A program made the position numbers and the translations under genes. Below the pieces are notes generated by a model. That model had not been told where the DNA came from, did not search any database, and saw only the letters and a list, made by a program, of their open reading frames with translations. 64,000 nt of DNA from Eledone cirrhosa (taxonomy: Eukaryota): positions 66,712,001 to 66,776,000 of the forward strand of contig OZ024746.1 of the NCBI GenBank assembly GCA_964016885.1, written 5' to 3'. Below, in pieces: positions 27,452 to 63,703 of the stretch. How positions within the stretch are numbered: position 1 is the first letter of the stretch; every line of letters begins with the position of its first letter.

Positions 27452-29024
27452 TTGCCATCGCCTTATTTGACATGGTCATTATCACCGTCATTATACTCTA
27501 CCGTCGTCATCATCAACATCATAATCATTGGTATCATCATCAAAGTAAAACCGTGCGTCATGTTCATTAATGATCATCATCACCGCCTTGATTATGGTGA
27601 TCCTCATCAACGTCAGTGCCAGCGTTCCCATTATTATTGTCATCACGTGAAAGATTAATTTTAATCTAAACACGAATTTCAATAAATAATTCTCTATCAT
27701 AACTCAGTCCTCAGGGCAAAATCGAAACGTAAAGAAAGAAAAAAATCACATTTGAAGTAGAAACTCAATTAGACACCCTCCAGCGGAATTTATATTTATT
27801 TATTTTCCTGGATTCAAAGCTCATATTATTTTCTACTTTTCTCATATCTAATTGTGTATTAAACAGTTTTGAAAGAACAGTTTTGATTAACAACGATTTC
27901 CTTAGGTGAGTATACACTTCGTTTAATTTTCCTCTACAGGTTTCGGTGATTGATCGCATGATTATGCTGGGGCACCCTAATTGTTTTTAAATTCCTAATA
28001 TCCACTGTAATGCCTTTTACGGTGAATATTTCATCGTTCAATAATATATATGTATATATACATATAAGGACTCGTAGGTCACTAAACTGAGGCAAGCATA
28101 TATATCTGCAACTTTGAGTGAAAGTTTTGCTGGTCTTGATTTCTATGGCACCTTGGAAAACTTTACAAATAAGGTTTACTCTGTGTGAGCTGAGGTACGT
28201 GATTTCAGAAACTGAAAATACTAGAGAATTTGGATGAAATCGAACATAATATCAACCAGCTACTGGAAAGTAAGCATAATCTTAATTGAAAGCTCGTGAA
28301 TCAGAATCTTGTTATGCAGCCGTCTGATGAGAAAGCCTACAAAGATCACCACTCAACCCTGCAATGCGAACTTCACAGGATGAAAATCAGAGTTTGAGCA
28401 AACGCTTTTCTGAAATTCAACAGATTCAACAGATTCAAAGTCGTTTAACATCAAACACAGACAAACACGAACATATGGTAAAAAAAGGTATAATAGTCAG
28501 AGCACGACTATACGATGAATTAGATCTAATTGGCGTGTAACATAAATGCTCGTTTCAGGAACACGCAGGAACTTGTGAAAGAAAGCGCAATCAGCCTTGC
28601 CTGCTTTCGAGAACATTTAGCTAGCAATCATTTACAAATTTCCCTGTCCTATTCGAATTCCCCCTGTACAAATGATAACACATGTATATAACATTATGTT
28701 TCTAACCAAATCATGAATAGCTGTCTACTTTTCTCGAAATGGATTTTGGATTTTATATCTTGTCATAATCGAACCAGTTCTCGTTATTCTTTCTTTATAT
28801 ACCAATCTCACCAGCTGCTAGACGTAAGCATAATTTACAAATATATCTGTTGCTAATTTAGTCCTATATTTATCAACACTTTTCATGTGTGTAGCAACAC
28901 TTTTCTATAGTGTAGGAGTTTCACCACATATTCCCCTATGTTGATGAGATCTTTCAAAATACATAGAAACATTACATGTATATCAACTCAAAGTATGGAT
29001 TTCTTGATTAGTGGTAGTAATAAT

Positions 29025-29152
29025 TGTTTCTACTTTTGGCACAAGGACAGCAATTGCCCCAATTCATTTCTGGTGCTTTATTTTATCGACCCCGTAAGGA
29101 TGAAAGGTAAAGTTAACTTCAGCGGGATTTGAACTCAGAACGTAAAAGGCCA
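29025..29152 (-). mobile_element. SINE family S, 5'-truncated, 16-bp TSD
   Basis: TSD TAGTGGTAGTAATAAT at 29009-29024 and 29153-29168. Confidence 0.88.
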
Positions 29153-29465
29153 TAGTGGTAGTAATAATATAATCGATAAAGTGAGGAGATTGTAGATGAC
29201 CCCACAATCTATTACATTTAGGCTTCTCTCTGGAGAGAATGTTGTTTACGAGCAGTGAGTTCATAGAATAATACGACAAAGCCATAATATATTAGCGGTA
29301 TAATCTCTCTCTCTCTCTCACTCTCTATCCCTATCTCTCTCCCTCTCTCATTCTTTCTCCCTTTCTCTCTCTCTCTGCATCGATCTATCTATCTATCCCT
29401 CCATCTCTCTCTCTTTATATATATATATGTAAGAATATTTTCGAAATAGCGAGTGGGTGTGAAAT

Positions 29466-29803
29466 TATTAGAAATGTAAGCTATCGCCGTATTTTGACTA
29501 AAGAAATTAAAGAAATTATTTAGCTTGATTGTGGGGTTAAGAACCCTCGGAGAAATGGAAAAAGATGAGTATTGACGTGCATGGGAGTCGAACCACATCT
29601 TTGGTTATCCGGATCACTGTGCTACCATTTACCCCAACATATCACCCGTCTTTTTCCGTTCAAATTAGAAGCTATAAACTTAGCGACTGTACGTCAATAC
29701 TCATCTTTTTCCATTACTCCGAGGGTTATTAACCCCACAATCAAGCTAAATAATTTCTTTAATTTCTTTAGTCAAAATACGGCGATAGCTTACATTTCTA
29801 ATA
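29466..29803. repeat. Inverted repeat (~110 bp arms) enclosing a tRNA-like head
   Basis: 29466-29578 is the reverse complement of 29691-29803. Confidence 0.88.
29573..29643 (-). pseudogene. tRNA-like sequence (pseudogene or SINE head)
   Basis: Minus strand GATATGT TGGGGTAAATGG...GGTTCGACTCC CATGCACGTCA: A-box, B-box and an imperfect acceptor stem. Confidence 0.55.
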
Positions 29804-29846
29804 ATATATATATATATATATTTATATATCTGGCAGGAAAGTATAC

Positions 29847-29885
29847 GTTGCTGACGATAGCTAATAAGCTTGAAACTAGTACAGC
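29847..29885 (+). ncRNA. Type I minimal hammerhead motif
   Basis: GTTG-CTGACGA-T AGCT AATA AGCT T-GAAA-CTAG-TA-CAGC; palindromic stem III ACTAGT. Confidence 0.7.
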
Positions 29886-30318
29886 ATTCCTTTGTGAGTG
29901 TTGAACAAACGAGCAACGATGGTTGCCAGACACTACGGCTTAATACGGGATGTTTGTTTACAAACACACCTAGCATTATAGTGAATGTTCGGTGAATCCA
30001 TACGTACATATATATATATATGTGTGCATGTATGTATATATATATATATATATATATATATATATACATACTACTGTACGTCTGTATACATATATGTATA
30101 TACGTGTACATACTTATATTTAAGTAACAGCCGTACTAAGAGTGAGAAATGAAATTTCGTTTCATTTTTTCCGTTTATCGTTTTCGGTGCACCCGGCCGA
30201 TTAACCCACTCGATATGCAAATTGGGCTACTCAACCGTTAATATATATAAATATAAATATATATATATATATATATATATATATATATATATATATATAT
30301 ATATATATATATATATAT

Positions 30319-60922: not shown

Positions 60923-62429
60923 CATATACATACATATATACATAAATACACACAGACACACACCTATATATATATATAGTTCAAATTTTAAAAAAACAAA
61001 CAGCGATACGATTGCACAAATTTTATTGGTTTCATATTTGGTAGAAAAGGAATGTTTCAAATTTGCGGGGGTTAGACTTTCATCAAGAGGATTAGAGTTA
61101 CAAGAAAGAGGAAGCTTGACATTGACAGTATCATTTTATAGTGAATAATTATCATTCCATTGCTATGTACTTCAATTTCGTCTCTAATCGTCCATATCTA
61201 TTAGCCAAACAATATCATTCACAGGAAATACATCCATTTCTCACACAAATTTCATTGAGATTATCACCATTCCATCACCCAAGGCGTGACGTAATTTGAA
61301 CGTGACATGAATTGATTTTGTAACTGATCTAGACAAGACGTGGAGTTCCACACCACATTGACTGATATGAGTGAACAAAAGCAAGCAACAACAGAAATAG
61401 CAAATGCACGACATATGCTTATATGGATGAATGTGTCCATTTTGGTACGTATGTATGTATATAAGCTTGTTTTCAGGAATACATAAGATTTGCATTCTTA
61501 TAGTTTTACATCGTAATAATCGGTAATTACCGTCTGTTGCGTAGTTGTGGTCAATCACCAGCAAAAGTACACATATAAAAAAGATCAGTATTGAAAATAT
61601 TTTAATTATTGATTAAAAAATTAGAGACCAATTCATTTAAACCTATTTACATTCTTCTATACTAACATGGTATGGCTGCCTTTCTTTCACACCCATTTAT
61701 AGAGTTCATATATATAAAATGTTAGTTAAGTTTTCTAGAAATGTTTACAGTAGCTGACTTAAGGAGCATTAGCAGGATATGGAAGACAAGTAAAATTTCA
61801 TTTGTGTAGGTAAACATCAAGTAATTTTTATATGTATCTGTATGCGTGTATCGTAATTGTTTTATACTTCTTTTGAAACACTCACAAATTCCGTACTTAT
61901 ATTCTTATATTTGTTTCATATATTTATGTGATCTGCGTTATCATATGTATCGCGTTTAACTATATATACATTTGATTTTGTGTTTTTTTTTCTGCATTAT
62001 TGACCTCAGGTATATATGCTATTCTTCTATTTATGCATGTATGTATTTAAGCTCCTTTTCAGCCCCTTAATATATTATAATTGTGTAAGTCAACAAAATT
62101 CGTGTGTAAAACACGACCAATGATCATATTCATGGACACAGCTGTGACAGAAATCTAATGGTGTAACATTATGTCTATGATTTAGAGCTATATTACTGGT
62201 ATTTAACGCGCTATTACTGCATTTAGGACATTAGTATTATATTTAGAATACTAATACGGCTATATAGAGCAGTGCTACTGTATTCTGTTTCAACAGATTC
62301 TGACACGACCGACAGAATACACTATAATCTGGAAAGTTTCGTTTCACATAGATTTTATGGTATTATATTTGTTTCTAAAATTCGGATGAAAAACATCATT
62401 TAACCAAATGAAAAATATTATTAAAAAAT

Positions 62430-62588
62430 GCGGTGGATTGGCAGTATCGGTAGAGGGTCGGACGCCATGCTTTCCAGAATAGTTACGTCCCTTTACGATC
62501 TGAGTTGAAATCCCACCGAGGTTGACTTTGCCTTTCATCCTTATGGGGTCGATAAAATAAAGTACCACTAAAGTAAAAACAATTATTA
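62430..62588 (+). mobile_element. SINE family S (3' internal deletion), 10-bp TSD
   Basis: TSD ATTATTAAAA at 62417-62426 and 62582-62591. Confidence 0.85.
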
Positions 62589-63024
62589 AAATTTACATGG
62601 GTATTGAACACTCATTGTTGCATCTATCAACATCACATGTATATATATATATATATATATATATATATATTCGTACATGGATACGTACATACGTTCGTAC
62701 GTACGTGCATGCGTGCGGTCGTGCTAGCGTCCGTGCAGTTTTAAAACTGATAACCACAGACATACAATAATAATAGTCATATAAGCTTCATGCTTAAAAG
62801 AAAAGAAAAGGAAATGTCCACCTATCAGACGTTAGTCTTCCATCAGGAGTAGAGGAAACAAAATATGAGGTTCATAGAAGATTATACAAATGGGTGTATA
62901 TAAGAGTTTGTATGATTTGGTGGAGAACTGCATGCATTCTTTGCGATTTTACATAGGTGTGTCTGGGTGTACAAACATCGTATTTATATGGGTTTAGTCC
63001 GGGAGTGTTACAGATATATATATA

Positions 63025-63221
63025 ATGTGCCCAGTCAACACGATAAATGTGTTTGGTATTAGGAAGGGCATCCAACAGTCGAAAACCTGCCAGATAGTTC
63101 TATACGGGAGAGACACGTCATCCAACCAATCTTGCCTCAAGTGGGACAACTCCCGTCTAACCCATGCTAGCGTTGAAGATAGACGTTAAACGATGATGAT
63201 GACGATGATGATGATGATGAT
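63025..63221 (+). mobile_element. SINE/LINE 3' end with (GAT)n tail
   Basis: AGGAAGGGCATCC...AACCCATGCTAGC..GACGTTAAACGATGATGATG, recalled as a common cephalopod retroposon tail. Confidence 0.6.
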
Positions 63222-63391
63222 TTAAAAGAAACACAACCATGACTGACATCCAATGTTTGAATTTTGATAAAATTATACATTTTATTCTAATCAACAGCTA
63301 GAAGAAAACTATATTGCATGTAACTATATTGCATGTATAATAAAACTATATTGCATGTATAATAAAACATTCCACGCATTATTTTACATAT

Positions 63392-63530
63392 ATAGTTACG
63401 TCCCTTTACGGTTTGAGTTCAAATCCCGTCGAGGTTAACTTTGCCTTTCATCCTTACGTGGTCGATAAAATAAAGTACCAGTAATGTACTGGGTAATTGC
63501 TGGCCTTGTGCCTAAAGTAGAAACAATTAT
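63392..63530 (+). mobile_element. SINE family S, 5'-truncated, 15-bp TSD
   Basis: TSD ATTATTTTACATATA at 63378-63392 and 63526-63540. Confidence 0.88.
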
Positions 63531-63703
63531 TTTACATATATATATATATATATATATATATATATATATATGAATACACAAACACACACACACATATATA
63601 TATATAATATATATATATATATATATAAAAGTAGCGAAACAAACGGTTATTAAACAATTTTCTAAATAAATTAAAAAATGTTTAAATAATCACCTGTTCA
63701 GAT

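Follow-up and report, generated by a model that had tools for sequence, protein, structure and literature searches.

A family of short interspersed elements (SINEs) was analysed in 64,000 nucleotides of the genome of the cephalopod Eledone cirrhosa (assembly GCA_964016885.1, contig OZ024746.1, positions 66,712,001 to 66,776,000 of the forward strand). This whole stretch is referred to as the window, and all target statistics given below come from it. It is AT-rich (32% GC outside a cluster of long interspersed elements, LINEs) and holds dispersed SINE copies, each between short duplications of its target, as well as a cluster in which further copies and Tx1-like LINEs lie in ATT arrays. The SINE prefers a short ATT-register target, and its 3' end carries a predicted hairpin in common with the Tx1-like LINEs, on the basis of which, rather than of the duplications, a partnership with such a LINE is likely.

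SINE and LINE insertions in the window

A census of the whole window with nhmmer gave 10 SINE hits, corresponding to nine insertions. The copies are short, dispersed and 5'-truncated, with a fixed 3' end, duplications and a high copy number. Six of the nine are dispersed and have a resolvable duplication. Two of these are on the minus strand: a 5'-truncated copy (29025..29152) with a 16-bp duplication (29153-29168 / 29009-29024) that starts ATTATT, and a full-length copy (47722..47905) lying in a degenerate ATT tract, with a 14-bp duplication (one mismatch; 47906-47919 / 47705-47718) and one additional ATT on the 3' side (47719-47721). On the plus strand are a slightly 5'-truncated copy (52905..53069; 10-bp duplication 52895-52904 / 53070-53079), a near full-length copy in which an internal deletion takes out the hairpin (62427..62581; 10-bp duplication 62417-62426 / 62582-62591), and a 5'-truncated copy (63395..63525) with a duplication from 63378 / 63526 that is 15 bp long, the exact match extending to 17. 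The sixth insertion, also on the plus strand (27305..27426), has a 16-bp duplication (27285-27300 / 27427-27442) that starts ATAATT. It is a fold-back insertion (27285-27445), in which 45 nt of tail and 19 nt of the target downstream are repeated in inverted orientation ahead of a 58-nt SINE tail (27369-27426), all within the duplication; it looks as if the complementary DNA had snapped back and been copied through the priming junction.

The other three copies are inside ATT arrays in the 2.3-20.6-kb cluster and are followed by ATT in their own orientation, including the one on the minus strand. The latter (2305..2484) is diverged (71-79% to the others) and has a longer-spacer tail without the hairpin, then (ATT)4. 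The two plus-strand copies are at 2541..2723 and, between two Tx1-like LINEs, at 9259..9434. A single ATT tract (2290-20560) contains three Tx1-like LINEs, one LINE of the restriction-like endonuclease (RLE) type and the three SINE copies; at 2515-2539 it turns from AAT to ATT between two oppositely oriented SINEs.

The three Tx1-like LINEs are on the plus strand, all inserted in (ATT)n of the one cluster and followed by ATTATT. LINE A (14518..20531) encodes an APE endonuclease, a reverse transcriptase (RT) and zf-RVT, with one internal stop in its second open reading frame (ORF2), and is flanked by (ATT)11 and (ATT)8. LINE B (9456..14484), with 73% amino acid identity to A, has broken frames and is followed by (ATT)11. 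The third element (6331..9241) is an internally deleted relative of A whose 5' part is joined to the 3' untranslated region (UTR); at 9030-9040 the endonuclease region runs directly into the 3' UTR, about 3.1 kb having been lost. It ends with a hairpin (9225-9237), then (ATT)6. The RLE-type LINE on the minus strand (2739..6300, 5' end approximate) has an R2-group RT; read in the orientation of the element, the sequence after it is AATAAT. We take this LINE to belong to Dong/R4.

The APE endonuclease, RT and zf-RVT domains found with Pfam in LINEs A and B place them in the L1 group. Among solved structures the RT matched human L1 best (89 bits, with R2 at 47 or less), and the endonuclease matches L1 as well. 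A Tx1-named alligator protein scored 237 bits against the window LINE, compared with 89 for L1. The closest named relative is a protein of Argonauta hians (68% identity), and in a tree of 35 rows (33 of them chosen from 240 proteins) that had no curated reference for Tx1 or L1, the LINEs of the window group in a separate clade together with an Argonauta protein. Searches of the LINE proteins against NCBIfam and the ESM Atlas gave nothing past RT/zf-RVT, and scans with the LINE protein gave no confirmed relative.

Duplications and the target motif

Five duplications, all starting ATTAT in element orientation, had been listed by a sequence-only reading of the window, and each was recovered at the same coordinates. 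The extension of this pattern to all dispersed copies does not hold, since the 27-kb insertion had been missed: the duplication starts with ATTAT in five of the six dispersed copies and with ATAAT in the sixth. The 5' and 3' copies of the true pairs share 9-17 bases and those of mismatched pairs at most 7 (30 pairings, five of which used the 3' start of the 27-kb copy one base off), and the duplications are therefore genuine. Since the ATTAT on the 5' side is outside the element, it is target DNA and cannot be SINE tail. Over all nine insertions, the bases after the SINE 3' end are ATTAT in eight and ATAAT in one, the register of ATTAT being that found at the ends of LINEs A and B.

Outside the LINE cluster, ATTAT occurs at 386 of 91,377 positions (about 1 per 240). 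The probability of finding it at five or more of six sites is about 8e-12, an indicative value because the motif was defined from the same copies. At +1..+6, 34 of 36 bases match the ATT register. In the other three six-base intervals the matches, each out of 36, number 15 at +7..+12 (P 0.21), 17 at -6..-1 (P 0.07) and 19 at -12..-7 (P 0.016, with no correction for the four windows). Immediately before the duplication stand T, G, T, T, C and C at the six sites, none being fixed. A motif confined to +1..+6 and available about every 240 positions amounts to an Alu-like target preference, not to strict specificity. The SINE has a six-base, one-sided target preference with at most a weak upstream tendency. 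Strictly sequence-specific elements of the R2/Keno-like type have a long target conserved on both sides of the nick, which is not seen here, and "sequence-specific", as the SINE had been called, is too strong a term.

The SINE has the same polarity as the three Tx1-like insertions and the opposite polarity to the Dong-like LINE, as had been proposed, and this argument is sound in excluding the Dong-like LINE. On the standard target-primed model the first-strand nick would fall on the AAT strand, in agreement with the earlier proposal. The polarity is not proof of Tx1, because the pattern would be no different for any LINE whose RNA has AUU repeats at its end and anneals at the nick. In RTE, CR1, L2 and L1 elements, the 3' repeat has been described to agree with the duplication start (PMC6007223). 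The duplications cannot count as independent support for Tx1, the role first given to them, since tail-target annealing leaves the same signature. Their lengths are informative in another way. L1 duplications range from 7 to 18 bp, and those of animal RTE elements are mostly 13 bp or less (PMC6007223); the 10-17-bp duplications of the SINE, four of six exceeding 13 bp, fit the L1 range. The T stretch near -10 that marks RTE was present, as TTT, at one of the six sites, so that by both features the SINE departs from the RTE-related type in this small sample.

A predicted shared 3' hairpin and the probable mobilising LINE

The case for Tx1 as mobiliser, which cannot be made from the polarity of the duplications alone, gains new support from the 3' ends. 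A 4-bp stem with a (C/A)TTGT loop is predicted in the SINE (TGGC-CTTGT-GCCA, 53045..53057, plus strand), in LINE A (AACC-CTTGT-GGTT, 20507-20519, plus strand) and in LINE B (GGCC-ATTGT-GGCC, 14459-14471, plus strand). The distance from the end of the loop to ATTATT is 16 nt in the SINE and LINE A and 17 nt in LINE B, and GAAA is found immediately before the end in all three. The stem and loop were predicted unaided by RNAalifold on an 11-row alignment of seven SINE ends, three LINE ends and one metagenome stretch (L001, below), from which the two hairpin-less SINE copies and the inverted arm were excluded. Pairing is present in 41 of 44 stem cells, and both sides are changed in a compensatory manner at three of the four pairs. 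The covariation score was reached by none of 500 shuffles, and slid controls pair at 27-55%.

Hairpins of this kind occur 14 times in the window, nine at element ends and five in the background. Only six of 384 ATTAT run starts have one 15-18 nt upstream, and these are four SINE and two Tx1-like ends. When the last 30 nt of the SINE were aligned to LINE B, 1 of 5000 shuffles was as good; the numbers were 224 of 5000 for LINE A and 1490 of 5000 for the Dong-like LINE, the end of which has no (C/A)TTGT hairpin. In the hairpin-less SINE copies, the deletions spare the last ~14 bases.

A model can be drawn in which the enzymes of Tx1-like LINEs mobilise the SINE by nicking the AAT strand, pairing the nick with the AUUAU(U) end of the RNA and starting at a fixed distance; we give it a probability of about 0.6. 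Four elements of this model can be read from the sequence: the target is duplicated, its motif is one-sided, the polarity is that of the Tx1-like LINEs, and the hairpin motif recurs at a set spacing. The ORF2 protein of the LINE would bind the (C/A)UUGU stem-loop, and reverse transcription would begin at a fixed 16-17 nt downstream of it. No extra ATT unit separates the SINE body from the duplication in five of the six copies, which fits such a measured start. The endonuclease, with a loose preference for ATT-register DNA, would nick the AAT strand; the nick probably pairs with the AUUAU(U) end, and this 5-6-bp pairing of RNA and primer likely filters the sites. Through that filter isolated ATTAT(T) seeds could be used besides long arrays. 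Cleavage of the second strand 10-17 bp away would then produce the duplication. Rather than LINE A or B, a sister family of theirs may be the actual partner.

A number of observations weigh against the model. All three Tx1-like ends are within arrays of one cluster, where the length of the LINE duplication is unreadable. The tail common to the SINE and the LINEs is only ~25 nt long, and blastn-short found no significant SINE-LINE match (best E 0.48). The stability of the hairpins is that of shuffles (z -0.18, 0.10, -1.16), pair-count measures are not significant (100 of 500 and 205 of 500 shuffles), and four of eight SINE 45-mers take another fold. The hairpin is missing in two of nine copies (62.4 kb and 2.3 kb), and one pair is broken in two more. 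The covariation comes from three lineages only, and the motif was first spotted by eye and then tested. Sequencing reads favour a longer spacer near 9400, so the short SINE form of the window may not represent the family. Finally, RTE and CR1 LINEs are reported to have been recently active in Octopus vulgaris (PMC13282606).

Mobilisation by another LINE (RTE, CR1/L2 or the like) with an (ATT)n 3' repeat is unlikely, though it has to be taken seriously. ATTAT would then come from annealing only, and the likeness of the hairpins would be due to chance or an old relic. The motif is indeed found only on the annealing side of the nick and two SINE copies lack the hairpin; moreover, RTE-related elements in general have a tail repeat that agrees with the duplication start (PMC6007223), and SINEs of unrelated LINE clades carry (ATT)n tails (PMC3747384 Table 2). 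However, the loop, the spacing and the compensatory stem are the same as in two Tx1-like families, and the end-target overlaps reported for CR1, L2 and RTE are one to several bases, compared with 5-6 here (PMC6007223). Annealing of a long repeat is also expected to leave variable numbers of ATT units, which is not what the five copies without an extra unit show. It is quite improbable that the Tx1 endonuclease alone sets the site, annealing taking no part and the SINE being truly sequence-specific. Such an enzyme would account for the exact 3' junction even at the ATAATT site, for the weak ATT-register excess upstream (-12..-7 and -6..-1) and for the use of arrays of at least four ATT units by four of nine copies, compared with 17 of 386 background ATTAT sites. 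But three of these four copies are in one cluster and are not independent, and no base is fixed 5' of the nick. The beta-hairpin loop of the endonuclease aligns without gaps to that of human L1, whereas it falls two residues short of the loop in PDB 2v0r, which we take to be the Tx1L loop; a loop of L1 length does not point to a highly specific enzyme.

The remaining alternatives carry very little weight. Mobilisation by the Dong/R4-like RLE element is largely refuted: the microsatellite that this LINE occupies is the same and the LINE end, AAAGAAC, is loosely like the SINE end GAAACA, but the polarity is opposite in eight of nine insertions, the hairpin is absent and the tail alignment is no better than shuffles. 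An artefact of small sample or selection in an AT-rich genome is hardly credible. Only six sites are resolvable, the motif was picked afterwards and the deviating copy had been left out of the sequence-only reading; nevertheless, the census with a hidden Markov model was complete, and the probability that all six sites differ from ATTATT by at most one base is about 2e-11.

The SINE family and its known counterparts

An A-box/B-box pattern of RNA polymerase III is present in the head of the 9259 copy, with 0.02 expected by chance; the strict pattern matched that copy only. No source transfer RNA (tRNA) emerged, ARAGORN giving no gene and Rfam no tRNA match. The family is abundant: depth was very high in four read runs mapped over 9040-9700, in which ATT junctions were skipped as repeats, and in one reduced-representation run it reached ~137,000 on the SINE core versus ~3,800 or less on the LINE A-type 3' UTR. 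The largest groups of loose-end reads depart from the reference near 9400 into a longer spacer resembling that of the 2.3-kb copy. Searches with the SINE patterns gave no matches in viral contigs, none in prokaryote genomes and three stretches in metagenomes, none of which is a full copy. One of the three, on a eukaryote-like contig (L001, 469-523), is a 55-nt stretch like the SINE tail with its hairpin and no ATT after it, a weak likeness since it was selected by the search pattern. The SINE may resemble the OK/OR SINEs of Octopus or the alpha-domain SINEs of SINEBase. MetaSINE, with a 66-bp Meta domain after the head, was considered and rejected: by eye there is no likeness to the BivaMeta-SINE1 consensus, and three motifs are missing from the available part of its supplement. 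No published consensus of this SINE came up when paper texts and supplements were searched for its motifs; the SINEBase supplements and the figure alignments of PMC4824008, which were outside the search, may already contain the family.

Other repeats share the window. A second, unrelated SINE-like element (63030-63221), present in a single copy, ends in (GAT)10, a tail that we take to be RTE-type. Two diverged CORE-like SINE copies (32354-32488 and 60795-60922) resemble the BivaCORE-SINE2 primer by eye. Two fragments that are 82% identical and like LINE 3' ends (21560-21737 and 39932-40112) continue into TA or TAGA repeats. Long inverted-repeat pairs at 41183-43130, 43325-45692, 21981-23713 and 29464-29805, with arms of 118-415 bp that are 79-97% identical and in some cases nested, are possibly non-autonomous DNA transposons. 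A 199-aa frame on the minus strand (24852-25451) has no Pfam match and presumably resembles the C-terminus of a Penelope-like element.

The target preference of the SINE has a well-known parallel. Duplications of Alu and human L1 start with tail sequence (AAAA) through a loose endonuclease preference and tail annealing, and millions of sites are possible. Alu is recognized by its poly(A) and has no tail in common with its LINE, whereas the window SINE uses the ATT register and has a predicted common hairpin. In RTE-related SINEs, too, the 3' simple repeat and the beginning of the duplication agree; these SINEs differ in that one or two bases agree, a T stretch lies near -10 and duplications are mostly 13 bp or less, compared with 5-6 bases, one site in six and 10-17 bp for the window SINE (PMC6007223).

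Tx1-driven, target-preferring SINEs are already known. SINEU of crocodilians was assigned to the machinery of Tx1-Mar through a common target preference, and its families differ in targeting, 90%, 23% and 13% being flanked by the target (PMC4494074). SINEU is like the window SINE in its target preference and in the use of Tx1 machinery, which is likely for the window SINE, but its heads are derived from small nuclear RNA and its target is Mariner, whereas the window SINE has a tRNA-like head and a 5-6-bp ATT seed; furthermore, in the available text SINEU was paired with its LINE by target, age and common heads, not by a tail hairpin such as is predicted in common for the window elements (PMC4494074). 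The Kibi, Koshi and crocodilian (TTCC)n/(TTTC)n families belong to the Tx1 clade and lie in microsatellites, as do the Tx1-like LINEs of the window, but they insert into (TC)n, (TTC)n and similar repeats instead of (ATT)n, and no partner SINE is mentioned in the available text (via PMC4494074). For the hairpin, the closest counterparts are the L1-clade pairs of maize and sorghum with a conserved loop and compensated stem (PMC3747384). ZmSINE2/ZmSINE3 with LINE1-1_ZM, and SINEX-3_CR with L1-1_CR, have in common a 3' hairpin whose loop and 3' flank are conserved and whose stem varies with compensation, as predicted for the window elements; they differ in being from plants and algae, in a common region of 45-80 nt and in a UCU loop, and the accessible text reports no microsatellite target (PMC3747384).

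The literature searched, which left aside most subscription papers as well as Repbase, contained no tRNA-type SINE of an animal joined to an L1-group LINE via a tail hairpin, and no ATT-targeting Tx1 of cephalopods for which a partner SINE was described. It is conceivable, although we hold it only tentatively, that this very abundant cephalopod tRNA-type SINE provides the first case among animals of a SINE whose pairing with an L1/Tx1-group LINE depends on a stringent 3' stem-loop, and that it exploits a microsatellite-targeting LINE, leaves the arrays via isolated ATTAT(T) seeds and duplicates the seed at each insertion. SINEs account for 11.6% of the Octopus vulgaris genome, and of the 900 SINE families that were recently active there, 893 have no classification (PMC13282606). 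With a likely partner LINE and a 13-nt recognition hairpin named, their classification becomes testable. If the pairing is true, the stringent RNA recognition of the L1 group listed for maize, sorghum and Chlamydomonas (PMC3747384) would reach animals. The LINE and the SINE appear to share machinery yet differ in their use of arrays, and they would thus provide a natural system in which endonuclease preference can be separated from RNA-primer annealing.

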